A stretch of DNA of 64,000 nucleotides, from the IMG/VR virus record IMGVR_UViG_3300031993_006620; one strand, written 5' to 3'. Below the pieces are notes generated by a model. The model saw nothing but the letters and a program-made list of their open reading frames with translations. It made no database searches and was not told the DNA's origin. The stretch is from a virus (Duplodnaviria > Heunggongvirae > Uroviricota > Caudoviricetes). The position numbers and the translations under genes are program-made. Within the stretch, counting starts at the first letter, position 1; each line of letters opens with the position of its first letter. This document shows positions 4,108 through 55,605 of the stretch, one piece after another.

Positions 4108-4136
4108 TTGACAAAACGGGTACGCGTGACTATATT
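4108..4136 (+). promoter_or_regulatory. consensus sigma70-type promoter TTGACA-N17-TATATT (copy 2)
   Basis: Duplicate of 2526-2554. The ORF track starts this ORF at the TTG of the -35 hexamer, which is an artefact. Confidence 0.55.
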
Positions 4137-4161
4137 TGTTCGTAATCAAGAGGATAAATAT

Positions 4162-5637
4162 ATGTACACTCGTTCAGAAAACGGTGCCGTGATGCACGCT
4201 TCGAGCGGCCACACCCTGCTCGACCTTAACTTCAACGCGCTCGGTATGCGCAAGCTGTCGAGCGAGAAGATCGTAGACCTGTTCTCCAAGGCGTACGCCG
4301 AGGACAAGCAGCTCGCCGTCCGCTGGCTCTTCTACGCCGGCGACATCCGCGAGGGCATGGGCGAACGCCACCTGTTCCGCTCCGCCCTCCCCTTCGTCGC
4401 CAAGCGCCACCAGCATCTGCTCAAGTTCGTGGGCGAGTACAACCGTTTCGACTCGCTGCTCCCGATGCTCGACGACGCCGAGCTTTCGGGCCCCGTGCTG
4501 AACCTCATCAAGGACCAGTTCAACGCCGACCTCGCCAACCTCAAGGACGGACGTTCCGTGTCCCTGCTCGGCAAGTGGCTCCCGTCCATCAACGCGTCTT
4601 CCAAGAAGACCCGCCATTACGCGAAGATCGTGTCCCGCGCACTCTTCGATTCTCACCGTACCTACCGCAACGCGTGCTCGATGCTCCGCGAGTACATCGA
4701 CGTCGTCGAGCGCAAGATGTGTTCGGGCCAGTGGGGACTCGTCGAATACTCCAAGGTGCCGGGCGTGGCCATCCACCGCTACCGCGAGGCCTTCTACAAG
4801 CACGACCTCGCCCGCTTCACCGAGTTCAACGCCAAGGTGCTGAAGGGAGAGGCGAAGAAGAACGCCGCCACGGTGTCCTCGGCAGAGCTCGTGCATAGTT
4901 ACCGCTATGGCTACGACAGCGTGAAGAAGGTCGACGTCGCGATCGAGGCGTCCTGGACCGCGTTGCCGGACCTCCTGGCAAATGACTACTCCATCATCCC
5001 GGTGTGCGACATCTCCGAATCCATGACCAACTGCACGATATCCGATGCGACTACCGCGCAGGTACTCGACGCTGCCGTGGGCCTGTCCCTCTACTGCGCC
5101 CGCTACAACAAGTGTCCGGCGTTCCGCGACAGGGTGATGACGTTCTCCTCGACCCCGAGGTTCGTGGACGTCGACGCGCCCACCCTGCGCGAGAACATCA
5201 AGCGCATCATGGCGTCGCCGAACAAGGGGTACAACACGAACATCACCCGCATGTTCGAGACGTACCTCAACGCCCTGATTGGATCCGGCGTCCCGGTCAA
5301 CGCGAAGCTGCCGACCCTCGTGATCTTCTCCGACATGGAGTTCGACCGCGAGGCCCCGCGCAACATGGGCTTTGATGACTCGCCCACGCTGTTCGACGCG
5401 ATCCGCAGGAAGTTCAAGCAGTACGGCTACGACCTCCCGCGCCTCGTGCTCTGGAACCTCAGCAGCCGTAGCGGCGGTGTCGCTGTCAGGACCAACCCGG
5501 CCGGTATCGTGATGCTGAGCGGCGTGTCCGCGATGACGATGGACATGATCTTCAGCAACAAGACCGACCCGTTCGACATCCTTTGCGACAAGCTGAACGG
5601 AAAGCGTTACCAGCAGATTACGCTGGAGGAAAAGTAA
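4162..5637 (+). CDS. vWA-domain protein (491 aa), possibly DUF2828-like
   Basis: ATG after an AAGAGGA RBS. MIDAS-like DxSxS motif (VCDISESMT) followed by a hydrophobic beta-strand pattern (LVIFSDMEFD). Confidence 0.65.
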   Translation: MYTRSENGAVMHASSGHTLLDLNFNALGMRKLSSEKIVDLFSKAYAEDKQLAVRWLFYAGDIREGMGERHLFRSALPFVAKRHQHLLKFVGEYNRFDSLLPMLDDAELSGPVLNLIKDQFNADLANLKDGRSVSLLGKWLPSINASSKKTRHYAKIVSRALFDSHRTYRNACSMLREYIDVVERKMCSGQWGLVEYSKVPGVAIHRYREAFYKHDLARFTEFNAKVLKGEAKKNAATVSSAELVHSYRYGYDSVKKVDVAIEASWTALPDLLANDYSIIPVCDISESMTNCTISDATTAQVLDAAVGLSLYCARYNKCPAFRDRVMTFSSTPRFVDVDAPTLRENIKRIMASPNKGYNTNITRMFETYLNALIGSGVPVNAKLPTLVIFSDMEFDREAPRNMGFDDSPTLFDAIRRKFKQYGYDLPRLVLWNLSSRSGGVAVRTNPAGIVMLSGVSAMTMDMIFSNKTDPFDILCDKLNGKRYQQITLEEK

Positions 5638-7106: not shown

Positions 7107-8237
7107 ATGCCTAGCAAGTGGCTCAACTGCGCGATACCCGGTGTCGCGCTTACTACCTGTATCGGTTCGGTCTACTGCTGGTCGCAGTTTTCCCAGAACC
7201 TCATGGCCGTATTCGGTCTGTCCAAGATGATGACCGACGTCGGCTTTACCCTCATCATATTTTTCCTCGGCATGTTCGCCGCCCTGTTCGGGAGCACGAT
7301 CGAGAAGAACCCGCGCATAGGCGCGTGGCTCTCCACTGCCGTGTTCATCACCGGGTTTGCTATGCTCGGTATTTCGGTGGACGCCGTGTCGGTGCCCCTG
7401 TTCTACGTTTCGACCGCCCTGATAGGCGCCGGTACGGGAATAGGGTACGTGACGCCCGTGAAGACGCTCATGGCTTTCTTCTCCGACCACAAGGGTCTGG
7501 CGTCCGGACTGGCGATTACCGGCTTTGGTCTCGCGAAGTTCGTAGCAGCCCCGGTGATCGAGTTCCTTCTCGCCAACGTCAGCCTGTCCCATATGTTCTA
7601 CATAATGGGGGCGATATACGCAGCGGTGATGACGGGCTCGTCCCTGATGCTCAGGAAATACCCGAAGGCGGAAACCGAGTTCGGCAACAGGAGCTTCAGC
7701 TACAAGCTGATCCTGAAGAGCAAGGAATGGTGGTCGATATGGTTCATGTTCGCCGTGAACATCAGCTGCGGACTCTCCATCATCTCACAGGAGAAGTCGA
7801 TACTGAGCGCACTGGGCATAACCGCCATCGCGGCTATCCTGTCCGGAACGGCCCTGTCCAACTCGGGAGGCCGTCTTGGGTTCTCGACGCTATCGGACAA
7901 GATCGGGCGCAAGGCCGCCTACCATTTCGTCTGTTCGTTCGGCATCCTCGGTGCGCTGTTCTGTGTCACGGGCAGTCCCGTACTATCCGTGCTCGGCATC
8001 CTCCTGTGCGAGGCCGCCTACGGCGGAAATTTCAGCGTGTTGCCCAGCCTTCTCGCAAAGCGATTCGGTATGGCCAATGCCTCCAGGGTACATGCTATGA
8101 CGCTGACGGGATGGAGCGTCGGCGGTATCGTCGGCCCGCTCCTCGCGAACACGTTCACTGGGTCTACCCTGTACATCGTGCTCGCCACGCTCTACTTCAT
8201 CGCGTTCACGGTGATGGAGATGAACGTCCGGAAATAG
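7107..8237 (+). CDS. MFS transporter (376 aa, OFA-like)
   Basis: AAGGAG RBS. About 12 hydrophobic segments and an MFS loop motif GRLGFSTLSDKIGRK. Confidence 0.75.
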   Translation: MPSKWLNCAIPGVALTTCIGSVYCWSQFSQNLMAVFGLSKMMTDVGFTLIIFFLGMFAALFGSTIEKNPRIGAWLSTAVFITGFAMLGISVDAVSVPLFYVSTALIGAGTGIGYVTPVKTLMAFFSDHKGLASGLAITGFGLAKFVAAPVIEFLLANVSLSHMFYIMGAIYAAVMTGSSLMLRKYPKAETEFGNRSFSYKLILKSKEWWSIWFMFAVNISCGLSIISQEKSILSALGITAIAAILSGTALSNSGGRLGFSTLSDKIGRKAAYHFVCSFGILGALFCVTGSPVLSVLGILLCEAAYGGNFSVLPSLLAKRFGMANASRVHAMTLTGWSVGGIVGPLLANTFTGSTLYIVLATLYFIAFTVMEMNVRK

Positions 8238-9625: not shown

Positions 9626-11149
9626 CTACCCGCCCACCTCGTTGCGACGCGGCGTCGTGTTCCATCCGAGGCTGAACTCCCCGAACCGGCCGAAGTCACG
9701 GATGTACCTGTCCACGGCCGTCTCGGGTATGCGCTCCCCGAAATGGGTGAGGATGATGCTCATCATGTCCCCGTAGCCTGCCACGGGGTACTTGGCGCGA
9801 TATTGCTCAAGTACAGTGAAGTCGTAGTCGCCTGCGGGGCGACCGCGACCGACCTCGTTGAAGAGATCCACGGGCCACTCGTTGCCCTCGGACTGGACGG
9901 TGCCGGTCTCGAAGTCAACTTCCCTCGAGAAGCCGACAAACGTGTTCCTGTCGACGTACTCGACGACGCGGTCGATGAACATGTCGCTGCAGTACACGCC
10001 GTGTACCCTGCGCTCGGCTTCGCCAGTGGCGATGATCATGTCGCCGTGCCCGAGAAGCCTTTCGGCGCCGCCGTGACCGAGGATGGTGGAGCTGTCCACC
10101 GCCGAGCTCACCTTGAAGGCGATTCGGTAGGGGAGGTTCGCCTTCAGGTCGCCCGTGATGACCTTCACGGACGGACGCTGGGTGGCGAGAACCAGGTGGA
10201 TGCCCACAGCACGGCTCTTCTGCGCGAGCCTCTGGACGAGGCGCGTGAGCTCGGCACCGCTGGACAGCATCAGGTCGGCGAACTCGTCAACCACGCACAC
10301 GATGTAGCGCATGCGGGCACCCGAAAGCCGGGAGATCGGCATGGTCGAGAGCCTCGCGTTGTACGCGCCGATGTTGCGGCAACCCTTTGCGGCGAGGAGG
10401 GCATAGCGGCGCTCCATCTCGTCGACGAGCCACCCGAGACCTCGCATGGACTCTTCGGGCGAGACGAGAACCCTGTTGTTCACGCAGTTGGGGAGCTTCG
10501 CGAACATCCCGAGCTCGACACCCTTGGGGTCGACAAGGAGGAGGTCGAAGTCTCGCAGGTCGACGTTCTTGATGAGGCTCGCCACGATAGCGCCGATGCA
10601 CACGGACTTGCCGGAGCCGGTCATCCCGGCTATCAGCAGGTGGGGCGCCTTGGCGAGGTCTATCGCGACGCCGTGGCCGTCCACGGAGACGCCGAGCTCG
10701 AGGGGGAGGGACATTCCGGAAACGTCGGCCACGACGGAGCCGGGCAGGACATACTTCCTCGTCTTCGCGGGGATGTCCACCGCGAGGACGCCTTCCTCGG
10801 GAATCTGGGTGCAGGAGACCTTGCTGACCCTGAGGCCCATCGCGATGTCGTCGCACAGCGACTCGACCTGCGAGACCTTCACCCCCTCGGGGAGAGCCAG
10901 CTTGATACGGACGAGCACGGGACCGCACTCGATCCCCCTGACGACCGCACCGCGAACGCCGAAGCTGCCGAGCACCTTCACGAGACGGTCGGATATTCCG
11001 TCGGGGACTTCGTTGCCGAGGTCGGCCGTTTCGGAATAGCACCGTTCCACGAAGTTGTCGCGACTGGTTATCCCGTAGCAGGATATGAGCGACTTCGTAG
11101 CGTTGTCGAGCTGGATGCCGAACATTGTCTCGATGTCTTTGCAGTACAT
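9626..11149 (-). CDS. FtsK/SpoIIIE-family DNA translocase ATPase (507 aa)
   Basis: Walker A GMTGSGKS, LLVDPKGVEL and FtsK-type motifs; AAGGAGG RBS before MYCKD. Confidence 0.8.
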   Translation of the reverse strand: MYCKDIETMFGIQLDNATKSLISCYGITSRDNFVERCYSETADLGNEVPDGISDRLVKVLGSFGVRGAVVRGIECGPVLVRIKLALPEGVKVSQVESLCDDIAMGLRVSKVSCTQIPEEGVLAVDIPAKTRKYVLPGSVVADVSGMSLPLELGVSVDGHGVAIDLAKAPHLLIAGMTGSGKSVCIGAIVASLIKNVDLRDFDLLLVDPKGVELGMFAKLPNCVNNRVLVSPEESMRGLGWLVDEMERRYALLAAKGCRNIGAYNARLSTMPISRLSGARMRYIVCVVDEFADLMLSSGAELTRLVQRLAQKSRAVGIHLVLATQRPSVKVITGDLKANLPYRIAFKVSSAVDSSTILGHGGAERLLGHGDMIIATGEAERRVHGVYCSDMFIDRVVEYVDRNTFVGFSREVDFETGTVQSEGNEWPVDLFNEVGRGRPAGDYDFTVLEQYRAKYPVAGYGDMMSIILTHFGERIPETAVDRYIRDFGRFGEFSLGWNTTPRRNEVGG

Positions 11150-11171: not shown

Positions 11172-11204
11172 TAATAAAAAATGCCGGGGCGGAGGAGCCC
11201 CGGC
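11172..11204 (-). terminator. rho-independent terminator downstream of the tmRNA
   Basis: Minus-strand read GCCGGGGCTCCTCCGCCCCGGC followed by ATTTTTTTATT. The stem sequence resembles the reiterated hairpin motif. Confidence 0.6.
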
Positions 11205-11346
11205 GACATTGACGATGTGCTGGAACCGTTCCGGCGAGAAAAAAGAGGCCAGCCGCCTTAGCGCAAGTTCCCAAACAACGAAATGGGTAACTGCGCGTCT
11301 GCCGCGTGCTGAACGGTGGTGCTACCGGCGGCTGGCGTGAGTTTCG

Positions 11347-11701
11347 TGGAGGTGGCGGGAGTCGAACCCGCGTCCAAAAACACTTACCCGCTTGCTACTA
11401 CACGCGTTTCCTCTGGATTTGAAATTTCGCAGGATCATACGCCCTAGAGGCCGGCGCGTGAACCCGCAAGCACCGATGGATCTCGGGGACGGCCTCGGTA
11501 CCGGACTTGTCCCCTACCCCGCATTGCGGCCCGGAGTCACCCCCAGCGGAGAAGGGGGCGGTCCAGGGGTTGCCTTAAATTAGGCAGCCATTGCTACAGG
11601 TGCAGCATTTATTTTTTACAGACTTTTTAACGAGTGCCCACGTCTGTGACCTCGGCGTGCAACTTGCGTATCGGCGTCCCTGTCGAAACCAGGTCACCCC
11701 C
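11347..11701 (-). ncRNA. ssrA: tmRNA (SsrA), about 355 nt
   Basis: 5' end GGGGGTGACCTGGTTTCGACAGGG and 3' end GGACGCGGGTTCGACTCCCGCCACCTCCA match E. coli tmRNA closely. An internal tag ORF ends ...GCAATGGCTGCCTAA (candidate tag AAPVAMAA); CCA is not encoded. Confidence 0.85.
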
Positions 11702-11769
11702 AAGTTTTACGTTTAAAAATCTCGCCGGAATGTTAATCTGCGGGGACGCTCTGCGGCGGTCCCGGACGA

Positions 11770-11798
11770 AATATAAGTATTTCTGCAAATGTTGTCAA
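11770..11798 (-). promoter_or_regulatory. consensus sigma70-type promoter TTGACA-N17-TATATT driving ssrA
   Basis: Reverse complement gives TTGACA acatttgcagaaatact TATATT, about 70 nt upstream of the tmRNA 5' end. Confidence 0.55.
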
Positions 11799-11800
11799 GG

Positions 11801-12358
11801 CTACCACTCGATCGAATGGCGCTTGGCCTTCGCCGATGGAAAGTTGAGGCGCCGGTAGAGCACCTGGTCGCGGACCCTGTAGTCGTCCGACAGCGACCAG
11901 TCTATGCTCTGCCTCGGAATCTCCGTCCCGACATAGTAGAGCCGGTGGTCGTCGACGGCGTCGAAGTTGACCGCGTCGAAGAATCGGAACCCGCTGTAGC
12001 TCGCCAGGATGTCCGGACAGCCGTCGACCCTTGAAATGCTCAGCACGTAGCTGTAGTCCCGGTTGTAGTCGTAGTAGCAGCTCAGCTTCCCCCTGTTCCC
12101 GGAAATCCTCACGAGATGGTATATCGCCACCTGGGGACAGGTCAGGTCGGAGTCGGGCGGTGTCGCGATCGAGCCGAGGTAGGCGCAGGTCGGCCTGCCG
12201 TCCACGAGGACGGGAAGCGTCTCCATCACCGCCACGGTGCTGAGGCGCGTGTCCTGTATGTCGCCCTTGACCTTCTTCCCGTCGAAGGGGACGGGAACGT
12301 GCTCCGCGAAAGCGGACGCGGCGAGCGCCACCGCCATTGCTAGGATTGCCTTTATCAT
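11801..12358 (-). CDS. secreted hypothetical protein (185 aa)
   Basis: Start MIKAILAMAVALAASAFA is a signal peptide, with RBS GAGAGGAAACCA. Motif copy and terminator lie upstream. ORF-track start 12412 trimmed. Confidence 0.55.
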   Translation of the reverse strand: MIKAILAMAVALAASAFAEHVPVPFDGKKVKGDIQDTRLSTVAVMETLPVLVDGRPTCAYLGSIATPPDSDLTCPQVAIYHLVRISGNRGKLSCYYDYNRDYSYVLSISRVDGCPDILASYSGFRFFDAVNFDAVDDHRLYYVGTEIPRQSIDWSLSDDYRVRDQVLYRRLNFPSAKAKRHSIEW

Positions 12359-12410
12359 TGGTTTCCTCTCGGGTTGTGTCCTGTCGATATGCCCGCCGGG
12401 GAGCCCCGGC

Positions 12411-12448
12411 ACAAAAAGAAGCGCCGCCGAGGTTCGCTCGGCGACGCC
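12411..12448 (-). terminator. rho-independent terminator after gene 12469-13161
   Basis: Minus-strand read GGCGTCGCCGAG-CGAAC-CTCGGCGGCGC followed by TTCTTTTTGT. Confidence 0.5.
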
Positions 12449-19949: not shown

Positions 19950-21345
19950 AGTTGACGACAAAATTATAAAATTTTTTCGCGTCAACTACCCACGCCCTAA
20001 AGGGCGTGAGCTTGTACGGCTCCCGTTGTTACCGCAGGGAGGCTTATGTACGATTGGGCGGTTGACATACACCCTGCCTTCCAAGTTCTCAATGCACCAT
20101 CAAGGGGCGTCTTGAACGAGGAAGGATGTTTGCTCTTCCGAGCTATATTGATTGCGGCATTCCAGTCGGCATCCAGGACAGTACCGTTCTTGCAATAGAA
20201 TCTACGATTCTTGCGAGTACCTTCCTTCTTGCCGGTGGTGCAATCTGTTTGGCTTGTCATGAACGGAGAAACCGTTTCCACTGTCTTACCGTACAGCGGT
20301 GCCTTGTATGACAAGATTTGCTTGAACTTGTAGAATGGAATTTGGTACATCCTACGATTATGGGATTTCCGTTTGAATCCCTCTTTAGACTTTGAAGTCT
20401 TCTGCTTAATTCCGCTTAAATCTTCCATTACGATAATGGAAGCCGCTGTGCTTTGAATTACCGCATTGGCAATCTTTCTGCACATATCGGTAGACTGGTT
20501 ATGTTCCTTGATGGATAGCTTACGAAAATGCCTATGAGCTGACTTGGTTCCTTTCTTCTGCAAGCATCGTTTCAAGTAACGTAGTTTGCGTTTACGCTTG
20601 TTATATTCCTTGTCATGGAACATGATGCCATCGGAGGAAATTGCGAAACGGCGTTCGCCCATATCCAATCCGATGCAGTTGTCATCATATAGAGGTACAT
20701 CGGGAACATTGAATGTTATCGAAAGGAAGAAACGCCCATTTCGCATGAAAATCAACGGGTCGGCGGTGGTATATTGCACAAACAGCGACTCCAGCCTGTC
20801 ATAGCCGACAATATCCGCTACGGCTCTTTTGCAAGCCTTGCCGGAGCACAATGCAATGCTCTTGCGATTGAACTTGGAATACAGCCGCTTGTCCAGCCTC
20901 ATTGATAGACCATGCTTTTCTGGTATTTTGTGCTTCTTATGACCGTTGCTCTTGATGGAACGAAATGCCGATATACATTCCTTGTATATTTTGATTACGG
21001 CTTGGCTTGGAATTGTTGGATATTCTTCTCGGAGAATATCATACACGGCTTTATGGACTGAACGCAAGTCTATATGGACATTGTTGGAATCTAATATGTT
21101 AGCACACTTGTTATAGGCTTCCCTGGACAATGCAAGAAGACTAGACCAGTATTCGTGGTCTTCCTTGGTACGGAACCGTATCTCTGCATTGTAGGTCAGT
21201 TCTACCATATAACTTTCACCCGTGTTCACCTATAAGTTTAGATAATTTCGGTTTGCAAAGCAAGTATTTTAGGCACAATATTGGAATAAATTGTTCCCAA
21301 AGTGTTCTCGTGGGCATTCCTATGCCGCCCTAAAGGGACGGCATC
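19950..21345 (-). mobile_element. IS200/IS605-family (IS1341-like) element carrying only tnpB
   Basis: Lower GC than flanks. Subterminal hairpins CACGCCCTAAAGGGCGTG at 19991-20008 and GCCGCCCTAAAGGGACGGC at 21324-21343, plus palindrome AGTTGACG..CGTCAACT at 19950-19987. Inserted between two motif-bearing genes. Confidence 0.6.
19997..21229 (-). CDS. tnpB: TnpB (IS605 OrfB-family RuvC-like RNA-guided nuclease), 410 aa
   Basis: RuvC-I CIGLDMGE, RuvC-II IVMEDL, Zn-finger Cys pairs, and RuvC-III CKNGTVLDADWNAAINIARK. Confidence 0.8.
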   Translation of the reverse strand: MNTGESYMVELTYNAEIRFRTKEDHEYWSSLLALSREAYNKCANILDSNNVHIDLRSVHKAVYDILREEYPTIPSQAVIKIYKECISAFRSIKSNGHKKHKIPEKHGLSMRLDKRLYSKFNRKSIALCSGKACKRAVADIVGYDRLESLFVQYTTADPLIFMRNGRFFLSITFNVPDVPLYDDNCIGLDMGERRFAISSDGIMFHDKEYNKRKRKLRYLKRCLQKKGTKSAHRHFRKLSIKEHNQSTDMCRKIANAVIQSTAASIIVMEDLSGIKQKTSKSKEGFKRKSHNRRMYQIPFYKFKQILSYKAPLYGKTVETVSPFMTSQTDCTTGKKEGTRKNRRFYCKNGTVLDADWNAAINIARKSKHPSSFKTPLDGALRTWKAGCMSTAQSYISLPAVTTGAVQAHAL

Positions 21346-24296: not shown

Positions 24297-24405
24297 TGTG
24301 AACCTCCTGAGATGGCTTGTTTGCACAGGTAGAATGGGTGGCCGGGGGAGCCCCGGACTCATTCGTTGGTGCTGGTGGCGTCTATAATCCGCGCCGTGGA
24401 AGTGA

Positions 24406-25412
24406 TTTCGAACCCCATGCGTATGGGGAGTATAATTATCGGCCAGTATTCGATGATCCGCTTTGTTTCAAACCCCATGCGTATGGGGAGTATTCGTCTT
24501 GTTGTGATTGAAGATGAACTGGACTATTTTCGATCCCCACACGTATGGGGAGTATATCAGCCTCACCACGAACCAACTGTACATGCGTATTTCGATCCCC
24601 ACACGTATGGGGAGTATATAAGCAATGACTGCCGGATGCCCTTATACAATTTCGATCCCCACACGTATGGGGAGTATCGACTTCTTAGACACGTCAGCAA
24701 GCTTCTTGGTTTCGATCCCCACACGTATGGGGAGTATCGTACCATTCTTCTTGACTAGGAACTCGTTCATGTTTCGATCCCCACACGTATGGGGAGTATA
24801 GCACAGGACTCGTGTCGCCTGCGGTGTAGTAGTTTCGATCCCCACACGTATGGGGAGTATAAATTAGCGGTGGGCAGCGAGCAGGCGTGCCGTTTCGATC
24901 CCCACACGTATGGGGAGTATATAAAGGTGCTTGCAGCAATAACATTAGCAGTTTTTCGATCCCCACACGTATGGGGAGTATCACCATTGTTTAGTTTTAC
25001 CTCTGCTCATAAAGTTTCGATCCCCACACGTATGGGGAGTATTCTTGCAACTTGCTCTCTATGGCGTGATCACTATTTCGATCCCCACACGTATGGGGAG
25101 TATCGCGAGGTCGCTGATTGCATCCTGCTTGGCGTTTTTCGATCCCCACACGTATGGGGAGTATAAGGGATGGGCCGGATGCCTTTTAGGGTGGCGTTTT
25201 CGATCCCCACACGTATGGGGAGTATCATCCAGAACAAGCCGACGGAGAAGCCGATTGTATTTCGATCCCCACACGTATGGGGAGTATTTACAATGTCGAC
25301 CAACGTCCCGACCTCAGTGCAGTTTCGATCCCCACACGTATGGGGAGTATTCCGAGCTGAAGGCTGTACGTCTTGCGCACGATATTTCGATCCCCACACG
25401 TATGGGGAGTAT
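24406..25412 (-). CRISPR. CRISPR array, 17 repeats of 28 nt with 16 spacers of 32-35 nt
   Basis: Plus-strand repeat TTTCGATCCCCACACGTATGGGGAGTAT; minus-strand read ATACTCCCCATACGTGTGGGGATCGAAA, containing a 5-bp stem. The two leader-distal repeats (24406, 24466) are degenerate. Confidence 0.95.
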
Positions 25413-25633
25413 CGAGGTTTTTTGCTAAAAAACGGCAATTTCGGGGATAATTCCGTGTTTAGAATCTTTTACAATTGAAAAAGTTACTTTATTTTTCAGC
25501 AAAAGTTCTTGCAAATATGAAACAATAGAGCTGTTGGCCATTGTTGCATAAACTCCGTTTGAAATTTTTGCTGTATAGTGCTGTAAAGCCCCAGACAGTT
25601 TTGGTGGTATCGAATGTTGAATTACAAAAATTG
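25413..25633 (-). promoter_or_regulatory. AT-rich CRISPR leader between cas1 and the first repeat
   Basis: About 220 bp and strongly AT-rich against a 60% GC background. Adjacent to the conserved (youngest) end of the array. Confidence 0.5.
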
Positions 25634-26464
25634 TCATAACCGTTTTTGAAATAGTTCAGTCAACAAATTGGTAAAGTTAGCGGTTACGTTAACATCACTA
25701 AGCCGCCTGGACAAGTCTGCCAGCAATTCACTTAGGTCGACTTCGTTATGCGTAGATACATAATTCATCGCTACTGGAATCGAAGTAGAAGTCTTTATTG
25801 TATCGGCAATATCATATGATAATGGGGTTGCTCCCGACCCGTGGATGATACCAAACTGCGGTAGATACCCCATTCCAGAGATACACGCGGTTGCGATTCC
25901 ATATAAAGCCATGTTGCATATGGTAATCGCGAAATTCATTTTATCGTCTGGGTCCATCTTTGAAGTCTGCGGGACACGACCATTCCATTTCAGTCCATAT
26001 TGCTTAGCGATCGCCTCGTATTGACGTTTCATGAAATTGGCTTCGAGCAAAAGCAACTCTTTTACATTGTCCGTGTCTTTGTAAGAAATCGACCGAACAA
26101 ATAAAAGTTTTTTCCATAGCGATATCCGATGATTCATAGTTCGATCAATTTGGGTTTTTGCATTTGCCATACTGCTGTTTGCGTTCAACCCAACCGTGTA
26201 CATACTCATACCACGCTTGCCGCACCATAATACCGTTGTGCCACAGTCTGACAGCATCTTAATTGCGTCTCGACTAATGCTTGTTCCAGCACCCAACAAT
26301 AGACAGGTATATGCAGATGGGCATAAACTGTTTCGGCTCGGCGTTGGTTTAGTGGTTGACACAATCAAATTGTTGTCTTTAACGTATAAAGCCGATTTTT
26401 CAATATACTGAAATCCTAGTCTGGATTCCATCCGCACAAGCGGAATGTTGTCTACATTTAGCAT
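25634..26464 (-). CDS. cas1: Cas1 integrase (276 aa), type I-E/I-F-like
   Basis: Strong similarity to E. coli Cas1 in the blocks YEAIAKQYGLKWNGR and LYGIATACISGMGYLPQFGIIHGSGATPLSYDIADTIK, including the catalytic E/H/D positions. Confidence 0.85.
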   Translation of the reverse strand: MLNVDNIPLVRMESRLGFQYIEKSALYVKDNNLIVSTTKPTPSRNSLCPSAYTCLLLGAGTSISRDAIKMLSDCGTTVLWCGKRGMSMYTVGLNANSSMANAKTQIDRTMNHRISLWKKLLFVRSISYKDTDNVKELLLLEANFMKRQYEAIAKQYGLKWNGRVPQTSKMDPDDKMNFAITICNMALYGIATACISGMGYLPQFGIIHGSGATPLSYDIADTIKTSTSIPVAMNYVSTHNEVDLSELLADLSRRLSDVNVTANFTNLLTELFQKRL

Positions 26465-27000
26465 TTAGGCAACAGTCTCACCATACCAAGGCCAAGGTAT
26501 TTCATACGACCGACTCGGCTCAGCAAGAGGCGTTCCAGATTGGCGGTATCGGTGACTTTCCATTCTCCAACCACTTCGCAGATGGGGAAGCTCTTGATTC
26601 CGTGGACATCGTCAACGCCCTGGCCTCGATAAGAACAGCGAGGCGTATCAACCGGTGCTAAGCCAAATTCGCCAAACCGTCTGGTAACGTAAGCGACCAT
26701 AGCTGCATCGTCGACACGTTGGTTTGCCAAAACCGGAAGCATCGTCCCGTTCTTGCGCTTAACAGCCGCGATGCGCACGGCGAGTCGTACCGTAGTCAAC
26801 CCTTCCAAATCAAGTTCGCAAGTAGCGACCCCGGCCATCTTGGGCTTGGTATTGGACTGGATGATAATGCTGTCGCCTTGAATAAGGAACGGCGGACATG
26901 GCTTGCTTTCATCAGCGTCGTGCATAACCTTGTGGACGATCTGATGTGCTTGGTTTAGTGAGTCAATGGCCACATTGTCAAGAATGGTTTTGTAAATCAT
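26458..27000 (-). CDS. cas6: Cas6e/Cas6f-like crRNA endoribonuclease (180 aa)
   Basis: Size, position next to cas1, and a C-terminal glycine-rich loop GRMKYLGLGMVRLLP like Cas6e ...MGCGLLSLAPL. Start MIYKT after a motif variant (GGGAAACCCGG). Confidence 0.55.
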   Translation of the reverse strand: MIYKTILDNVAIDSLNQAHQIVHKVMHDADESKPCPPFLIQGDSIIIQSNTKPKMAGVATCELDLEGLTTVRLAVRIAAVKRKNGTMLPVLANQRVDDAAMVAYVTRRFGEFGLAPVDTPRCSYRGQGVDDVHGIKSFPICEVVGEWKVTDTANLERLLLSRVGRMKYLGLGMVRLLPKC

Positions 27001-27074
27001 ATTAACCTCGCTGTGCGCTGTATGGATGATTGGATAAGGGAAACCCGGCCGACATTGTGTCAGTCGGGATTCTG

Positions 27075-28061
27075 TTATTCGAACGGTACAGGAAGCGTCT
27101 CGTTGTGTTCGTCCCAGTTGCAGACCGTCTCGCGCCAATTCGCAAAGTCGGTCTTACCGTCTTTATCAGCCGGATAGAGAGAACCACCATCAAGAAGGGT
27201 CGCCATTTCCGGTCCGGCGAGAAGCATTTCTGCTTCCTCGGCGGTAACTTGAAGGAAAATCATACCGCTTGCAATCCAAGTGCGTTCCGGGGTTCCGTGT
27301 ACGGAAACCGGAGCACCCCAGCTTTTCAGTTCGGCATATCTGCCCCACGTTTCGCCACGGAAGATGGATCCGCTGACCACACCTCGAACCACCGGGTCGA
27401 CCAAGTCGCGTTCGGTCACGGTTACATTCGGTATATCGGCAAAGAAGTCAAGCACGTCTTTGTTTCCGTTCTTATACTGTTCGCGGAGTTCGGTCAGGGT
27501 TTCGAGTACATTCAATCGGTACTTGTAGTTGCTGCCGATGACTTTGGCGCACATCTGGTCGAACATATTGTATGTTTCGTAACCCCAGACTGTCGGAAGC
27601 GTATCGTGGCTCGGACAAGCTCGGATCAGCTCGTGGGCAACTCCGTCGATGACTAGCTTGGCAGATGTCTTCTGTTGCTTTACAGAAAGATCTGTGCTGT
27701 TCATACTATACATCGACAGTTTTGCCGTCTGCATAATGCTTTGGTTATCGGGAACCGTGTCAATACGGACGCGAGCGCGTTTGGCGATATCGACATATTT
27801 CGCGAAACCATCGTAATCGGCGAGCGGGGAATGCTTGCGCTTGGTGGGAATCGGACGGTCGCCGCAGAGTACCGCGATTGCGTTAGCTACGCAGTGCAGC
27901 GGCAACGTGTCATCCGGACATACGGTGCGGTCGTTTTCGGAAGCCGCACGGAAGCCACCAAATTCAAACATTGTGTGTTCGCCTTGCAAAAGATTTCCCT
28001 TTGCCGTAGTGTGGATGAAACGCTTGGTACTGTCAAATTTCAACGCAATCTGGTACATCAT
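27075..28061 (-). CDS. candidate Cascade subunit (328 aa), Cas5-like by synteny only
   Basis: Located between cas7-like and cas6. Size matches Cas5f/Cas5fv; no sequence motif recognised. Confidence 0.35.
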   Translation of the reverse strand: MMYQIALKFDSTKRFIHTTAKGNLLQGEHTMFEFGGFRAASENDRTVCPDDTLPLHCVANAIAVLCGDRPIPTKRKHSPLADYDGFAKYVDIAKRARVRIDTVPDNQSIMQTAKLSMYSMNSTDLSVKQQKTSAKLVIDGVAHELIRACPSHDTLPTVWGYETYNMFDQMCAKVIGSNYKYRLNVLETLTELREQYKNGNKDVLDFFADIPNVTVTERDLVDPVVRGVVSGSIFRGETWGRYAELKSWGAPVSVHGTPERTWIASGMIFLQVTAEEAEMLLAGPEMATLLDGGSLYPADKDGKTDFANWRETVCNWDEHNETLPVPFE

Positions 28062-28072
28062 TGGTCAACTCC

Positions 28073-29086
28073 TTACTTGGTTTCTTCGGTGTCGCTGGAC
28101 TTCTTTCCCTTCTTTCCCTTCTTGGGTTCCTTGGGATGCAAGAGGTCGCGGACTTTCTGTTCGGCTTCGAGAGCAGCTTCCATACTGGTTTCGTCATACT
28201 GAAGCGCAACAGAAATTTTTTCGGCAAGCTGACCATTGACGATGTCAACGTCCTTACGCGTACCATCGTCCAAGGTAACGGTTGCCTTCATCGTTTCAAA
28301 TTCGACGTATTCGGTCGCGTTGTGAATGTCGATTTTTTGGATCTGACCTATCAAGTAGTTGACAAACTTGTTCACTGTGTCGTCGTCAAACTGATAGCAG
28401 ATTTCCGGCTGAACGCTGTTCTTCTTGCAGAGTGCAACTTTCTTGAACACGAACCCGTTTTCGGAAAGTTTCTGTTCGAATAGCGGTTGAAGGTCGGGAC
28501 GAACGCAGGGACGATCCAGCGTGTCGCTGCAAGCGAGAACGGAAAGTTCGGAGAGGTCAAGGCGTGCGGTAAAGGTGAAGTGAGACTTTCCGAGCGATTC
28601 CTTAACGAAGAACGATGTGTCGGACCTGGGGCCAGAGCTGCTGTGGGTTTCGAGCTGGGAAACCGCATCGTTGTCGAGTTCAGCGTCGGAGACGGTCAGC
28701 GGACTCTTTCGTTTCGTGGTGATGTCGGCCTTGGACGGATTCAAGTATCCGCGAATCAATCCAACATAGCTCGCGTTTTCGGCAATGAGAGAAGTAATGT
28801 CTTCCTTGGTCGCCGGGTTGTTTACTATGTCGAAAATGGCGTGGCGAATGCAGTCGCCGCTCGTCTTGATGACACGACCGCGGCCATCTTTGTAGCCGTT
28901 GGCCTTCATAAACGTGATGTTGTCGTTGAGAGCCATCGGCAAGAAAGCTCCGCCTTCGTTCTTGGCAAGTTCGTTTTTAGCCTTGACGTGCTGGTTATAG
29001 AGGTACTTGCCGTCCTTGCCTTCCTTGTTCGGACTGCCGAATCCGGCAAGGGTGACGATGAATTCGATTTTCTTCGCTTTCTGCAT
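28073..29086 (-). CDS. candidate Cascade backbone subunit (337 aa), Cas7-like by synteny only
   Basis: Immediately downstream of cas3. N-terminal G-rich segment (TLAGFGSPNKEGKDGK). Motif variant GGGGGAACCCCGG lies upstream. Confidence 0.35.
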   Translation of the reverse strand: MQKAKKIEFIVTLAGFGSPNKEGKDGKYLYNQHVKAKNELAKNEGGAFLPMALNDNITFMKANGYKDGRGRVIKTSGDCIRHAIFDIVNNPATKEDITSLIAENASYVGLIRGYLNPSKADITTKRKSPLTVSDAELDNDAVSQLETHSSSGPRSDTSFFVKESLGKSHFTFTARLDLSELSVLACSDTLDRPCVRPDLQPLFEQKLSENGFVFKKVALCKKNSVQPEICYQFDDDTVNKFVNYLIGQIQKIDIHNATEYVEFETMKATVTLDDGTRKDVDIVNGQLAEKISVALQYDETSMEAALEAEQKVRDLLHPKEPKKGKKGKKSSDTEETK

Positions 29087-29155
29087 AATGGATTCCTTTG
29101 GTTAAATTGTTGTGTTGTTGCACCTTATCGATGCCAAGGTTGGGGGAACCCCGGT

Positions 29156-31495
29156 CTATTTCTGGTCGGTCGGTTCAATCTCGTACCATCCATATTCATG
29201 GTCGTAGGCCATATCGGAAGGTCTAACCACGAACGGATAGTCTGGGTTGCGCCACATCGCTGGGTGTGTCCCGTAGAACTGACATTTGCGTTCTTGGGCC
29301 TTGCCGCCTTTCCCTTCCAAATACTTGTGAAGAACTGGAAAGTGTTCAGCAAAAGTTGAGTCGCTACGAACATACCTAAGCAGTTCGTTTCCCGACTTGA
29401 TATACGGTCTGAACGATGGTTTCGCCTTGAATGTCGTAAAGTCGGTATAGGATTCGCCAATCTGGAACGGACCGCAGTACACGCCGTCAGTGTCCTTTAC
29501 GACGAAGCTAATCGACGGGTCGATATTGCGGAGCGAACCGATATTTCCCTTGTTTTTGATGGACTTGCGCATAAAGGCTGGACGGTGCGGATAGCACTGC
29601 TTGACAAGCTCTTCCAAACCCTTCTTGTACAAGGTTTCTTGATACTTATTAAGCAAGTCGATATGTTCGGCGTTGAACGAGTCGAGCATCGCGTAAATGT
29701 CGCTCAAGGTCATCTTTTCCTTGACGTGAGACTTGATATAGTTCGTCCACGCCTTGTAGATGTCGTGAGTGACCTCGAAATCGTTGTGGTCGAGATAGAC
29801 TCGGTTTGCCTGTGACAAGTTAGATGGAATGACGAACACGATGGTCGCGTCTTGCACCTCACCCCAACGGTCACACCGACCGATGATCTGGATGTCGCCG
29901 TTAGGGGTACTTACCATAAATTCGATTTGGCGGAACGAAATGTCAAGGCTCGCTTTCATAATCGGTCCGGACGCAACACCTACCTTGTCGGCGGTCGCAC
30001 CCTTTCCGTACATCGAGTAAATCTTGTCCATTTTCGCCTTCTTGTCCTCGTCGGTGAACTTGCTGTGGAAGCAGATTGCGCCTTCGACGGACTTCGCTGC
30101 TTCCTGAGCGTCTGCAACTACGTTGAACACCTGAGCAGAGCCGTTCTCCAGCTTACCGAAATCTTCCTTTACCATAACATTGTACGGAACATTGTGCTGC
30201 GGCTGATAATGGGCGTTTCTTTTCGGAAGGTAGTTGACCCTCTCGTTGTCGCGGAAGAATTTCTCGTTATAGATGGTAATTGGAGTGGCAGAGACGAGCA
30301 GAGACTTCGCCTTGGTGAAGTTGTTGCGGAGCTGCAAGAGAATACAATAGGCCGCGTACATCGGGCAATTATCCATTGAGAACTCGTGGAACTCGTCGAA
30401 CACCATCGGAGCGGACATCATAACGTACTGCATATTGGCTTGTCTGTTGCTCGCGTACGGCTTTGTGATTGCGTCCAAATTCGTGACGATAATGTGCGGA
30501 CACGTCCCATCGTCCTCACGGTTGCTTCCCTTGATTTCGCCCGTATACATCTTTTCGATGCACACATCAAGGCCAAGCACTTCGTTGAGCTGAACGAGTC
30601 CGATGTACACGGATTCAATGACGGGGTTTCTTGGGCATACCCAATAAACCGTCTTGCGACACTTCAATGCCCAAGCCATACCGACGAGCGTCTTGCCGAA
30701 CCCAGCCGGGGCGGCGACCACATTGGTCGGTTTGTCGGCCAGGTTGACAATATCCATCTGTTGCGCGAAGCGTTCGGCATTGAAATTGTCCGGCTTGCGG
30801 ATTGTTTCGATGTTAAAACGGTCTTCGTTAAAGGAGTCGGCGTAACCGCTCACTTCTCGGTCGGCTCGGATAACCACTGCGCGAACGAACATCGTGAGAA
30901 CATTGTCGTCATACTTGGTCGGTTCGATTGCGAATAAGTTAGGCGCGACGAAGCTCTGCACGTCCCTTTCAGGAAATTCCATTCCGACAAGGTCGGAAAC
31001 GAAATCCGCGATGGCCTTAATGTCGAACTGGTCGCCGTAGAATATCTTCTGGCTGTAGTTCAGTTCGCCGTAGTCAGGCGCAGCGGCGTGATGCCAAAAC
31101 ACAGCCGACTTTACCGATTCATAGCACTTTCGGTCGGTTATGCCGAACTTTTCGCAAAGTTCAGGGCCATATACACAAAGGAAAGCCCAACTGAACTCGT
31201 TGTGGTATCGAGTAGCGTCGTCGGTGACTGCGTCCACCAATTCATCCGGTTCGGCGGACGCATCTTCGTTTTTCTTGATGTAGTCTTGAAAATACGGGAC
31301 TGACTTACCGATATCGTGAAGCAAACCGGCGACAAAGCAAGCCGTAATTACGGATTCCGTAGAATATTGCGGTCCGAACTGCTTCTTGAGTTCTGCACCC
31401 GAAAGAAGACTGGTCGCGATTTCCTTGGCTCGTAATGCGACCGTATTGCTGTGGTCTTTAAGGGTTACGCCGTTGTGCTTTGCGAGAATGGTCAT
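29156..31495 (-). CDS. cas3: Cas3 HD-nuclease/SF2-helicase (779 aa), not fused to Cas2
   Basis: N-terminal HD motifs (LLHDIGK, FWHHAAAPD). Walker A AAPAGFGKT and DExH-like DEFHEF. Confidence 0.85.
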   Translation of the reverse strand: MTILAKHNGVTLKDHSNTVALRAKEIATSLLSGAELKKQFGPQYSTESVITACFVAGLLHDIGKSVPYFQDYIKKNEDASAEPDELVDAVTDDATRYHNEFSWAFLCVYGPELCEKFGITDRKCYESVKSAVFWHHAAAPDYGELNYSQKIFYGDQFDIKAIADFVSDLVGMEFPERDVQSFVAPNLFAIEPTKYDDNVLTMFVRAVVIRADREVSGYADSFNEDRFNIETIRKPDNFNAERFAQQMDIVNLADKPTNVVAAPAGFGKTLVGMAWALKCRKTVYWVCPRNPVIESVYIGLVQLNEVLGLDVCIEKMYTGEIKGSNREDDGTCPHIIVTNLDAITKPYASNRQANMQYVMMSAPMVFDEFHEFSMDNCPMYAAYCILLQLRNNFTKAKSLLVSATPITIYNEKFFRDNERVNYLPKRNAHYQPQHNVPYNVMVKEDFGKLENGSAQVFNVVADAQEAAKSVEGAICFHSKFTDEDKKAKMDKIYSMYGKGATADKVGVASGPIMKASLDISFRQIEFMVSTPNGDIQIIGRCDRWGEVQDATIVFVIPSNLSQANRVYLDHNDFEVTHDIYKAWTNYIKSHVKEKMTLSDIYAMLDSFNAEHIDLLNKYQETLYKKGLEELVKQCYPHRPAFMRKSIKNKGNIGSLRNIDPSISFVVKDTDGVYCGPFQIGESYTDFTTFKAKPSFRPYIKSGNELLRYVRSDSTFAEHFPVLHKYLEGKGGKAQERKCQFYGTHPAMWRNPDYPFVVRPSDMAYDHEYGWYEIEPTDQK

Positions 31496-31582: not shown

Positions 31583-32389
31583 TTAGTTCAGGTTGAAGAA
31601 GGGTGTAATGTGCTCTCCCGGCACGACTTGCGGGAGGGTGCCGTTCCAGCGGTCGAGCATCTGCAGCTTGACGTAGTTGCCCACGGCGGGAGATTGCAGT
31701 GCGCGGAGCTTCGTGACGATGGCGATCGAGTCGGCCTTCGCCTTGATGATGGTGGCGATGGAATCCTTCTGCGCGGCGATGACTTTCTGTTCGCCTATCG
31801 CAGTTATCTTTTCCTTGACTTTCTTTTCCTTTTCGGCCTCCTGCTGGGCTACCTGCTTGTCTTCGACCGCAAGTCGGAACTTCTCCTTGAAATTGAACTT
31901 GTATATGCTGAACCCGTCGATGATGATATGGCTGTCGGCAGAATCCAGCTTGGCGCTCAGCACGATCTCCATCCTGTGCCTGATCTCTTCTCGCTTCTGC
32001 AGAAGGTCTTCCGCCTTGTATTGCGGGGTTAGCCCGGTGATGGTCTCTCGGATTTTCGGCCTGATTCCCGAGCTGATGGCGTCCATCCCGTACTTGTTGT
32101 AGAGCGCGTCGGCCTTTGACGGGTCGAAATGGAAGTTCACGTCGACACCGACGTCGACCGTCTGCAGGTCCTGCGTACCGGCTTCCATTTCAAGCGTCTC
32201 GAGCTGCGTCTTGATCGGGACCTTTTCGATGGTGCGGAACCACGGGAAAATGAAAGCGGCACCCGGTTCGACGATACCGGTCACTTTACCGCAGAGCTTG
32301 ACCACGCCTCGTTCGGTGGAGTCTACTTTGGTGCAACCCGTGAGAGCGAGGAGCGCGAAAATCGCGATAATGAGAATGGTCTTCTTCAT
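31583..32389 (-). CDS. SPFH/band-7 domain lipoprotein (268 aa)
   Basis: Lipobox LLALTGC. SPFH-like core and C-terminal QMLDRWNGTLPQVVPG. Confidence 0.7.
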   Translation of the reverse strand: MKKTILIIAIFALLALTGCTKVDSTERGVVKLCGKVTGIVEPGAAFIFPWFRTIEKVPIKTQLETLEMEAGTQDLQTVDVGVDVNFHFDPSKADALYNKYGMDAISSGIRPKIRETITGLTPQYKAEDLLQKREEIRHRMEIVLSAKLDSADSHIIIDGFSIYKFNFKEKFRLAVEDKQVAQQEAEKEKKVKEKITAIGEQKVIAAQKDSIATIIKAKADSIAIVTKLRALQSPAVGNYVKLQMLDRWNGTLPQVVPGEHITPFFNLN

Positions 32390-33618: not shown

Positions 33619-34617
33619 CTAAAGAATTTTTTCTTCCACTTCGAACGAGCCCGTCCTGAGACGTTCGACGAACACCACGTACCCGCGTCCGGACATATGG
33701 TCGAGGGCGTGCTCGGACTCCTTGCGCAGCTTCGTGATTTTCCTGTGGCGGATAATCTCGGAAACCACGATGTCCATCAGCCCGTAGTAGCACTCGCTCT
33801 TCGACGCTCCCTTGGCGGGACGGACGTACCGCACGTCATCGTCGTGGAAAAGGATCTGGATCGATTCCTTCCCGTCGCGGACGTGCTTGCTGAACCGCAC
33901 CGTCTCCTCGCGGTACTTGATGATGAGGTCGGTGTCTTTCACGTAGAACGTGCTGTTCTCCATCATCGTGGCGTGCTTGTAGCCGGTGCGGTCCACGAAC
34001 GAGGCCATCTGGCACGGGTTGAAGATACGCTCCAGCTCGTTACGGAACCCGGTGCTGCCGAGGACGGCCTTGTTCTCGGCCAGGAATACGTCCCTGAACG
34101 CCTTGCCCTTGTACACTACGGGCCCGGCGGCGTCCTCGGTCGGGTTGTCGAGCGTGTTGTAGAGCATGTCGCAGAGCTTGATGAGCAGGGCGTCCTCGCT
34201 AAGCGAGAGCAGCTTCTCCGTCATATAGGCCTCCTTCCCGACCTCCGCGATGTCGAACCGGTTGTTGGTCAGCTCGTTGCAGAGCCTCGCGACGTTGGGA
34301 CCGAAGATAGCCATGAGCTCGGGGAACGAGGTCTTGGTGTCCTCCATCAGGTCGTGGCCCAGCGCCGCGTTGATGAGGGTCACGGAACGGTTGCACTCCA
34401 GCGTCCCGCAGTGCTCGGAGACGAGCCACGCCACGCCCCTGCAGTGCAGGAAGTACGGCACGCCCGTGGCCTTGCGCTTCTGGTGCGCGTGGCGACCCTT
34501 GGCGAAGTAGTACATCGCCCTGCACCTGACCGGGAAGTCGGTGGACTGCATCTTCATGAAAGGGGAGTCGTAGTCGAAATCGTCCTTTTCGTCGCAATCG
34601 TAATCGTAATTGGCCAT
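33619..34617 (-). CDS. HD-domain phosphohydrolase-like protein (332 aa)
   Basis: Start MANYDYD after a motif copy; H...HD pattern (ALGHDLMED). Confidence 0.5.
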   Translation of the reverse strand: MANYDYDCDEKDDFDYDSPFMKMQSTDFPVRCRAMYYFAKGRHAHQKRKATGVPYFLHCRGVAWLVSEHCGTLECNRSVTLINAALGHDLMEDTKTSFPELMAIFGPNVARLCNELTNNRFDIAEVGKEAYMTEKLLSLSEDALLIKLCDMLYNTLDNPTEDAAGPVVYKGKAFRDVFLAENKAVLGSTGFRNELERIFNPCQMASFVDRTGYKHATMMENSTFYVKDTDLIIKYREETVRFSKHVRDGKESIQILFHDDDVRYVRPAKGASKSECYYGLMDIVVSEIIRHRKITKLRKESEHALDHMSGRGYVVFVERLRTGSFEVEEKIL

Positions 34618-34670
34618 AATGCCCTCCTGTTTGGTTACACTTGCCGTATGCACCCTCGGGGGAGCCCCGG

Positions 34671-34922
34671 CTAGTCCTTCGGGATGAAGCGGTTCTTCCC
34701 GCCGCCCAGCTTCTCGTAGACGAGGGAACGTGCGAACTTGCTGAGGCCGAAGTCCTTCGCGTCCAGCAGGGACAGCAGCTCCTTGCGCCGTGCCCTTATG
34801 ACGGACTTGCCTATCTCCTCCTCCAGGATCTCCTTCACGTCGCTCCCGTCCGTGTTGAGCCAATGCACCTCGGCCTCGCACTGGCCGATGGCGTTGGAAA
34901 GTTTTTCTTCAAGGTTCTGCAT
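34671..34922 (-). CDS. hypothetical protein (83 aa)
   Basis: Start MQNLEEK after a GAAGGAGG RBS. Confidence 0.45.
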   Translation of the reverse strand: MQNLEEKLSNAIGQCEAEVHWLNTDGSDVKEILEEEIGKSVIRARRKELLSLLDAKDFGLSKFARSLVYEKLGGGKNRFIPKD

Positions 34923-55539: not shown

Positions 55540-55605
55540 ATTTAACTCCTTGTGGTTGGTACAGGGAGAATGGGGCTCCGGAGGAGCCCCGGACACCCAG
55601 AGACA

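Follow-up and report, generated by a model that had tools for sequence, protein, structure and literature searches.

A tmRNA gene with an eight-residue tag, probably encoded by a very large phage-like mobile element

Whose gene is the transfer-messenger RNA (tmRNA; ssrA) gene that lies on the minus strand of IMG/VR virus record IMGVR_UViG_3300031993_006620, a contig assigned to the Caudoviricetes? The 64-kb stretch of this record that we analysed (64,000 nucleotides, here called the window) had received a first-pass annotation from its letters alone, which left two possibilities: a host ssrA acting as the integration hotspot of an island or prophage, or a tmRNA encoded by the element itself. 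The evidence below makes it probable that this is a functional one-piece tmRNA gene carried by a phage-like mobile element of very large size (407 kb or more), and not the chromosomal ssrA of a host.

ARAGORN predicts a single tmRNA in the window, at 11346..11701 on the minus strand, with the tag AAPVAMAA*. The Rfam family RF00023 matches 11701..11344 over its whole model (1-374) with 163.9 bits (E 7e-65; gathering score, 47), and nothing else in the window attains the gathering score in the Rfam scan. ARAGORN and Rfam, the latter a check of the Infernal type, thus agree on the complete tmRNA that the first-pass annotation had described; the length given there, 355 nt, is close to the 356 nt that we measure. 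From ARAGORN, RF00023 and RNAalifold we place the one-piece gene at 11344..11701, and the mature RNA probably spans 11701 to the discriminator A at 11347. The gene has CGA (11346-11344) in place of CCA, so that CCA must be added post-transcriptionally. The tRNA-like domain has a 7-bp acceptor stem, GGGGGUG/CACCUCC, with a G3:U pair and then the discriminator A; its T-arm, GGGUUCGACUCCC, is canonical as read from the sequence, and the earlier description of both the acceptor and the T-arm as canonical holds. The G3:U pair is a recognition feature of alanyl-tRNA synthetase (AlaRS). Two other forms of the RNA were considered and rejected. A two-piece (permuted) tmRNA is disfavoured by its model, RF04321, which scores 23.8 bits where 47 would be needed to reach the gathering score, and an RNA reduced to the tRNA-like domain, of the DS6A type, is ruled out by the full-length model match and a conserved tag open reading frame (ORF).

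The tag ORF, GCU GCA CCU GUA GCA AUG GCU GCC UAA, occupies 11580..11606 of the minus strand (ARAGORN coding part 96-122, and the sequence itself) and encodes AAPVAMAA*. The resume context AAAAAUAAAU stands directly before the GCU resume codon, and the UAA stop lies in the loop of the next helix, GCUGCC/GGCAAC. In the tmRNA database the modal tag length is 10 residues and the shortest tag has 2 (PMC11915505), so an eight-residue tag is not exceptional by itself.

Where else does this short-tag gene occur? The exact DNA of the tag ORF is present on three IMG/VR contigs, and the tag pattern including the AAAU resume context on nine metagenome contigs. Every complete short-tag copy is 356-357 nt long, encodes AAPVAMAA and ends in ..CCACGA; the form was not found outside metagenome and IMG/VR contigs. 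The copies fall into two clades. Clade A comprises the window, a 98-kb contig from the European Nucleotide Archive (ENA) and a 407-kb contig. Clade B comprises contigs of up to 135 kb, including a 135-kb viral contig, whose tmRNAs are 96-100% identical to each other and about 77% identical to those of clade A (range about 74-79%). The flanks of clade B show no DNA or protein similarity to the window; they contain small phage-like ORFs with 51-53% GC. Among the INPHARED phages, a BLAST search of the tmRNA region found no close relative and nothing beyond a 33-nt T-arm match to an Alcaligenes phage; the PLSDB plasmids gave no match.

The comparison of the two clades bears on whether the RNA is functional. 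RNAalifold predicts 102 pairs from seven family members, and 10 of the 102 are compensatory between clades A and B; the Rfam alignment spans the regions of pseudoknots PK1-PK4, the compensatory changes being counted for nested helices. The 5' end is shifted by one column in the seven-member alignment, and the acceptor pairs were taken from the sequences: G3:U is kept in all seven, and G5:C of clade A is A5:U in clade B. The longest identical stretch between the clades is a 34-nt block made up of the resume context, the tag ORF and its stop. The compensatory changes together with the invariant tag block point to an RNA that is both folded and translated.

Cellular counterparts were sought with a degenerate AAPVAMAA* pattern in one genome per species, 185,579 species in all, which gave 11 matches. 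Six of these are tmRNAs, every one with a long tag. The four complete genes from Caldilineaceae, Litorilinea and an Anaerolineae metagenome-assembled genome (MAG) measure 407-409 nt, carry the tag AKTTGKAFNFGFANAAPVAMAA and encode CCA; a fifth match, also from Caldilineaceae, is truncated where its contig ends, and the sixth is a 380-nt gene in a Tepidisphaeraceae MAG with the tag ANSDVAGRVGFAAPVAMAA. The short-tag form occurs in none of these species-representative genomes. In the other five matches (Afipia, an alphaproteobacterium, Steroidobacteraceae, Kiritimatiellae and Comamonas) neither ARAGORN nor Rfam recognises a tmRNA, and the Kiritimatiellae match, from yak rumen, looks on direct reading like a chance match in GC-rich DNA. 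The cellular tmRNAs are 64-73% identical to clades A and B, and the two loci that were inspected (L072 and L065) are surrounded by ordinary cellular genes.

The Caldilineaceae and Tepidisphaeraceae tmRNAs share with the element the overall architecture, the G3:U pair, nearly the entire T-arm and the last eight residues of the tag. They differ in length (380-409 nt versus 356 nt), in having tags of 19 or 22 residues and, for the Caldilineaceae type, in encoding CCA. AAPVAMAA corresponds to the C-terminal eight residues of both the 22-residue Caldilineaceae/Anaerolineae tag and the 19-residue Tepidisphaeraceae tag; the 3' end of the tag ORF differs at 1 of 27 nt from the Caldilineaceae ORF at L072 and at 5 of 27 nt from the Tepidisphaeraceae tmRNA. 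Judged from these alignments, the element tag looks like the outcome of an in-frame loss of the first 14 codons with the AAAU resume context retained, and descent from such a gene is plausible. The ending AMAA, correctly read at the outset and there called unusual, does differ from ALAA, but it is not peculiar to the element, as the cellular tags of Caldilineaceae/Anaerolineae and Tepidisphaeraceae have the same last eight residues. AMAA is a lineage variant of ALAA that the element has in common with cellular genes.

Could the gene nevertheless be a host chromosomal ssrA, with an integrated prophage or island beside it? Genes for tmRNA are frequent integration sites for islands and prophages, according to PMC9004378 and PMC11915505, and in the window a long array of genes begins immediately on one side of the tmRNA. 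As first described, the tmRNA lies between an FtsK-like gene (9626-11149) and this array of hairpin-motif genes (11.8-64 kb). Two motifs specific to the element, however, occur on both sides. The exact promoter motif TTGACAA-N16-TATATT occurs 5 times in the window, where shuffled sequences would give 0.03, at 2526 and 4108 on the plus strand, beyond one flank of the tmRNA, and at 11798, 17099 and 39456 on the minus strand, the last two beyond the other flank; four of the five sites are independent, the 2526/4108 pair falling in a tandem duplication. The 12-mer CCGGGGCTCCYC, which marks a hairpin found throughout the element, has 37 copies (0.02 expected); all lie on the minus strand, from 11192 to 63735, and those at 11192 and 12398 bracket the tmRNA.

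The FtsK-like gene on the supposed host side also belongs to the element family. It has relatives on two large IMG/VR contigs, L004 (348 kb, 55% identity) and L010 (467 kb, 39%), and in L004 homologues of three further array genes flank it on both sides. Core cellular genes were found on neither side of the tmRNA: its 5' side is occupied by the array of hairpin-preceded genes, its 3' side by the FtsK-like gene, a Ro-like gene, a transporter gene and others. The window contains no second ssrA 3' end, the 23-nt 3' segment occurring only once with up to three mismatches allowed, and Pfam found no integrase of the PF00589 type among the roughly 50 window ORFs scanned. These were the duplicated attachment (att) segment and the integrase that the first-pass annotation had proposed to look for. 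The 98-kb ENA contig matches the window at 100% identity across the 19.6 kb that they share; both of its ends are 45 kb or more away from the tmRNA, and its annotated parts hold no core cellular genes. With the short-tag form missing from every species-representative genome scanned, we regard a host ssrA at an integration junction as very improbable, and of the two original possibilities the element-encoded one is borne out by the element motifs and family genes on both sides.

That the locus is an assembly chimera, or a decaying pseudogene, is the least probable of the explanations we weighed and hardly needs to be entertained. In its favour one could cite the metagenomic kind of the data and an exact tandem duplication of 1582 bp in the window that another assembly of the element lacks. 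The order g19, tmRNA, FtsK-like gene nevertheless recurs in the ENA contig at 100% identity and in JAEEGK010000010.1, the 407-kb contig (407,066 bp; GenBank whole-genome shotgun), which is 98% identical and syntenic over 14 kb including the tmRNA. A 120.6-kb NCBI contig has the matching gene order and, at the position of the tmRNA, an equally large interval without genes; a Logan contig runs across the junction between the tmRNA 3' end and the FtsK-like gene; and exact copies of the FtsK-like gene are found on at least three independent assemblies. The concordance of independent assemblies argues against a chimera and shows that the element measures 407 kb or more; a pseudogene is disfavoured by the compensatory changes and by the Rfam score over the full model. 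Each unit of the duplication (1305-2886/2887-4468) holds two genes, of 234 and 129 aa, and a single copy of the promoter; the unit is present once in the otherwise identical ENA contig, and the duplication reflects either strain variation or an assembly artefact. The 407-kb relative (L079 3102-3836) and the 120-kb NCBI contig also have an extra gene of 244 aa just downstream of the FtsK-like gene that is absent from the window and the ENA contig, a case of gene-content variation between strains that are 98% identical.

A gene of the element might still serve mainly as an attP-like target, its homology guiding integration into a host ssrA and trans-translation being incidental. The 3' T-arm/acceptor segment indeed agrees almost completely with its counterpart in the Caldilineaceae tmRNAs (14-, 8- and 6-nt blocks), and integrative elements frequently bear 3' fragments of ssrA. 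An attP site, however, is normally just the 3' fragment; here the entire gene is intact, its helices show compensatory substitutions and its tag ORF is perfectly conserved. Like an expressed gene, it is moreover accompanied by a promoter and by terminator-like signals, and no integrase was found in the window. An attachment function in place of trans-translation is accordingly about as improbable as a host ssrA.

How, then, is the gene of the element expressed? A sigma-70-like promoter of the TTGACAA-N16-TATATT type is found by motif match at 11770..11798 of the minus strand (-35 at 11798-11793, -10 at 11775-11770), with a predicted transcription start at about 11763. Written as TTGACA-17-TATATT it fits 11 of 12 consensus positions, so that the promoter, first described as perfect, is near-consensus; it is indeed of a type that recurs in the window. 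The exact motif is also present in L004 (429, 6384, 9926 and 12195) and in L010 (6281 and 9789), and it seems to be characteristic of this family of huge elements. The CCGGGGCTCCYC 12-mer is absent from both.

L004 and L010 also suggest where the promoter came from. In both, the same promoter stands 22-25 nt before the ATG of the FtsK-like gene, and no tmRNA occurs within 10 kb on either side of that gene. In L004 a homologue of the window's next gene upstream (11801-12412) immediately precedes the promoter and the FtsK-like gene, without a tmRNA between them. In the window the promoter is about 620 nt from the FtsK-like ATG, and the tmRNA and its trailer fill the interval. This comparison suggests that the promoter originally served the FtsK-like gene and has come to drive the tmRNA as well, rather than having arrived with the tmRNA. 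On the simplest reading the tmRNA cassette was probably inserted into the 5' untranslated region (5' UTR) of an early FtsK-like gene and uses that gene's promoter; no direct repeats flank the insertion. The FtsK-like gene, whose ribosome-binding site (RBS) AAGGAGG is at 11160-11154, is probably co-transcribed with the tmRNA or reached by read-through.

The distance from the -10 element to the 5' end of the tmRNA leaves a putative 5' leader of about 62 nt (11702..11763, minus strand), which RNase P presumably removes and which has no significant structure of its own (z = 0.28). Downstream, the 3' trailer contains a candidate first terminator at 11239..11336 of the minus strand, consisting of a 10-bp closing stem (11336-11327/11257-11248) whose arms are 100% complementary as an inverted repeat, a branched loop and a U-run at 11244-11239. 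A second terminator-like hairpin with a T-run, GCCGGGGCTCCTCCGCCCCGGC, follows at 11204..11183 on the same strand. At the RNA level this is the GC hairpin GCCGGGGC-UCCUCC-GCCCCGGC followed by AUUUUUU (11176..11204); it belongs to the element-wide CCGGGGCTCCYC hairpin family, no other copy of which lies further downstream. The 176-nt trailer with both hairpin structures has a minimum free energy of -69.5 kcal/mol (z = -3.61), and the trailer of the clade B tmRNAs has no significant structure. After the second hairpin comes GTGAACCAGCAAGGAGG, a degenerate likeness of the CTGTACCAAC box and RBS that precede most genes of the array. Because this box and RBS come after it, the hairpin at 11204-11183 may be either a second terminator of the tmRNA or, equally, the upstream module of the FtsK-like gene. 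The tmRNA had been credited with a promoter and a terminator of its own. Both signals are present, although the promoter likely derives from the FtsK-like gene and the hairpin possibly belongs to that gene's module. An Rfam E-value scan of leader and trailer gave nothing credible and no riboswitch. The leader and the trailer share an 11-nt perfect complement (UUCCGGCGAGA at 11730-11720 and UCUCGCCGGAA at 11239-11229; chance expectation about 0.1 for the region), which might form a processing stem in the precursor.

If the RNA is made and used as we infer, host RNA polymerase would read the sigma-70-type promoter of the element class from near 11763 and produce a precursor in which the tmRNA (356 nt) is preceded by the leader (about 62 nt) and followed by a structured trailer with one or two hairpin and U-run signals. 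Maturation of this RNA would fall to RNase P, 3' nucleases and the CCA-adding enzyme of the host, host AlaRS would charge it via G3:U, and host SmpB with EF-Tu would bring it to stalled ribosomes. Translation would resume at GCU, append (A)AAPVAMAA and stop at UAA. As the tag equals the C-terminal eight residues of cellular tags, the product should carry a degron for host proteases, and those that recognise the cellular ..AAPVAMAA tail would degrade it. Each rescue event would cost 11-14 fewer codons than with a cellular tag. The likely benefit to the element would be extra recycling of ribosomes and clearance of truncated proteins during infection.

The same RNA might instead act as a decoy or competitor that manipulates host quality control: by titrating host SmpB or swamping the host tmRNA, it would cause rescued proteins to be marked with another tag, or with one that works less well. 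The tag lacks the 11-14 N-terminal residues of the cellular tags, and the N-terminal part of a tag can carry determinants for adaptor binding, as for SspB in Escherichia coli. The C-terminal residues, on the other hand, are those that proteases recognise in the E. coli ssrA tag, and exactly these are retained. A decoy would also fit the RNA's presumed dependence on host SmpB, for which no gene was found in the window by Pfam (about 50 ORFs) or by tblastn with an E. coli SmpB sequence, a weak probe that had no positive control, and the tRNA-like-domain RNA of DS6A is reported to inhibit the endogenous tmRNA (PMC4131195, PMC11915505). The mRNA-like domain, the resume context, the stop and the C-terminal octapeptide are nonetheless strictly conserved in two clades, as expected if the tag is translated and its sequence matters. 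We therefore consider a decoy function unlikely, though less so than the host-gene and attachment-site explanations.

Several observations weigh against a functional tmRNA gene that is carried by a phage and derived from a Caldilineaceae-type gene. Neither the window, the 10 kb adjoining it nor the 21-kb pieces taken from its relatives yielded a terminase, capsid or portal gene, and PHROG scans of the L004 and L010 pieces were likewise negative for virion genes. The label phage depends on the IMG/VR class of the relatives, on phage-typical genes (Ro-like, FtsK-like, GP88 and DNA methylase) and on gene organisation, and the carrier may be a megaplasmid. The searches for SmpB, an integrase and an att duplicate covered the window, and the far end of the element lies outside it. 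The bodies of the element and cellular tmRNAs are only about 70% identical, which leaves descent from a Caldilineaceae-type gene unproven. One of the source samples of clade B (3300001425) is a goat rumen metagenome, in which Caldilineaceae would not be expected to be prominent, and the tag match may therefore point to the wrong host.

By a rough call from third-position GC, genes lie on the plus strand up to about 8.2 kb, followed by a near-unbroken run of mostly small minus-strand genes from about 8.3 to 64 kb. The FtsK/SpoIIIE-like gene (9626-11149, minus strand) encodes 507 aa and is identified by PF01580 (E 3e-44), PF17854 and phrog_1358 (E 6e-80). The upstream neighbour (11801..12412, minus strand; 203 aa) has no assigned function; tblastn aligns it to L004 9455-9844 with 44% identity. 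Most genes of the 11.8-64 kb array are preceded by a module that reads, on the coding strand, GC hairpin CCGGGGCTCC-YC..GGAGCCCC, AT-yy-TC-CTGTACCAAC, RBS AAGGAG and ATG (for example at 55523-55595); it could be a combined terminator and promoter unit or a hairpin-type promoter for a polymerase encoded by the element. Six kb from the tmRNA, at 4108-5637 on the plus strand (true start probably near 4162), a gene encodes a Ro-like/DUF2828 (DUF7788, TROVE-type) RNA-binding protein (phrog_850, E 5e-98) that has relatives in 695 phage records. The Ro-like protein and the tmRNA may form an RNA quality-control set; Rfam detected no Y-RNA-like gene in the window. In clade B a gene with a PNKP-phosphatase domain (HAD_PNKP) lies directly upstream of the tmRNA (L003 5942-6397, L078 1538-1990, L080 1245-1700), which hints at a module for RNA repair and translation unlike the context in the window, and a 27-kb clade B contig carries QueD.

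Within the window, a CRISPR array at 24393-25412 has 17 repeats of about 28 nt (TTTCGATCCCCACACGTATGGGGAGTAT), degenerate at the 24.4-kb end, and 16 spacers of 32-35 nt. The adjoining cas genes (25634-31495; whole locus, 24393-31495) encode Cas1, a Cas6e-like protein, two unassigned proteins and Cas3 with HD and helicase domains, and the locus looks type I-E-like. None of the spacers matched the other loci compared, and the two nearest to cas1 had no exact match in IMG/VR. Pfam further identified a major facilitator superfamily (MFS) transporter (7107-8237), an SPFH/Band 7 protein (31583-32389), an HD_4 hydrolase (33619-34881), a GP88-like protein (51248-52069) and a C5 DNA methylase (52218-53120). 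HD_4 we take to be a hydrolase domain of the RelA/SpoT type, so that this protein may be a (p)ppGpp hydrolase; it and the SPFH protein are candidate modifiers of host physiology. A TnpB-like (IS605 OrfB-like) gene at 19997-21229, assigned by Pfam and PHROG, has a third-position GC of 0.52 against 0.7-0.9 in its neighbours, which suggests recent insertion. About 30 further ORFs of 129-258 aa have no Pfam family, and ARAGORN found no tRNA genes in the window.

How does the locus compare with known systems? Phages with tmRNAs have long been known, among them Bxz1-type mycobacteriophages and Bacillus phage G (PMC4131195); one survey found tmRNAs in 2.3% of phage genomes (PMC9004378), and they have been noted in huge phages and large plasmids (PMC7162821). 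The one-piece tmRNAs of Bxz1-type phages, phage G and the huge phages of Al-Shayeb et al. 2020 are likewise complete ssrA genes in large phage or phage-like genomes, presumed to use host SmpB or to supplement rescue, and many huge phages, like the element, carry CRISPR-Cas (PMC4131195, PMC7162821, PMC12484599). The element differs from these in that its tag corresponds to the last eight residues of cellular tags, whereas that of phage G, AKLNITNNELQVA, shares nothing with it. It also has no tRNA genes in the 64-kb window, its tmRNA gene stands between a conserved element promoter and an FtsK-like gene, and no virion genes were found in the parts of it that were scanned. In Methylophilales phage Melnitz and pelagimyophage, as in the element, a complete virus ssrA is found just downstream of a predicted early promoter of the sigma-70 type (PMC9004378); that tmRNA type is common among phages and has been used as a host clue (PMC9004378). 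Those RNAs are two-piece, one with a glutamine riboswitch, whereas the RNA of the element is one-piece and has no riboswitch in its flanks. The RNA of mycobacteriophage DS6A is also a phage ssrA derivative shorter than cellular genes, but it keeps only the tRNA-like domain and inhibits tmRNA, whereas the element retains the whole mRNA-like domain and only its tag ORF is shorter. Like an ssrA serving as an attachment site for islands and prophages, the tmRNA of the window lies directly beside a long block of mobile genes; unlike such a site, it is internal to the element and has no cellular genes around it, and neither an integrase among the ORFs scanned nor a second ssrA 3' end was found in the window.

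What history might account for a short-tag gene in two unrelated settings? We offer, tentatively and as a proposal more likely to need revision than not, that the family is a virus-adapted lineage. A Caldilineales-like ssrA would have lost the first 14 tag codons in frame, keeping only the degron octapeptide, and would have passed horizontally among large phages or elements that are unrelated but have the same host range (at least 407 kb for clade A, at least 135 kb for clade B), where it would speed rescue or redirect host quality control in infection. In the lineage of the window the gene would then have been captured into the 5' UTR of the early FtsK-like gene and be expressed from the promoter of that gene.

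Knowledge of trans-translation as such is unchanged by this locus, phage-borne tmRNAs being already documented. Assigning the ssrA to the element matters for annotation and for the definition of element borders, and the relatives show how an accessory RNA gene slots between an early promoter and its gene. The tag offers a testable host clue, since the proteases of the host should recognise ..AAPVAMAA. The two virus-like lineages also provide a natural case of a minimal tag, in which only the last 8 of 19-22 residues are retained. The interest of the finding is modest and lies in this degron-only tag in two unrelated virus-like lineages, in the insertion between promoter and gene, and in the clue to the host.

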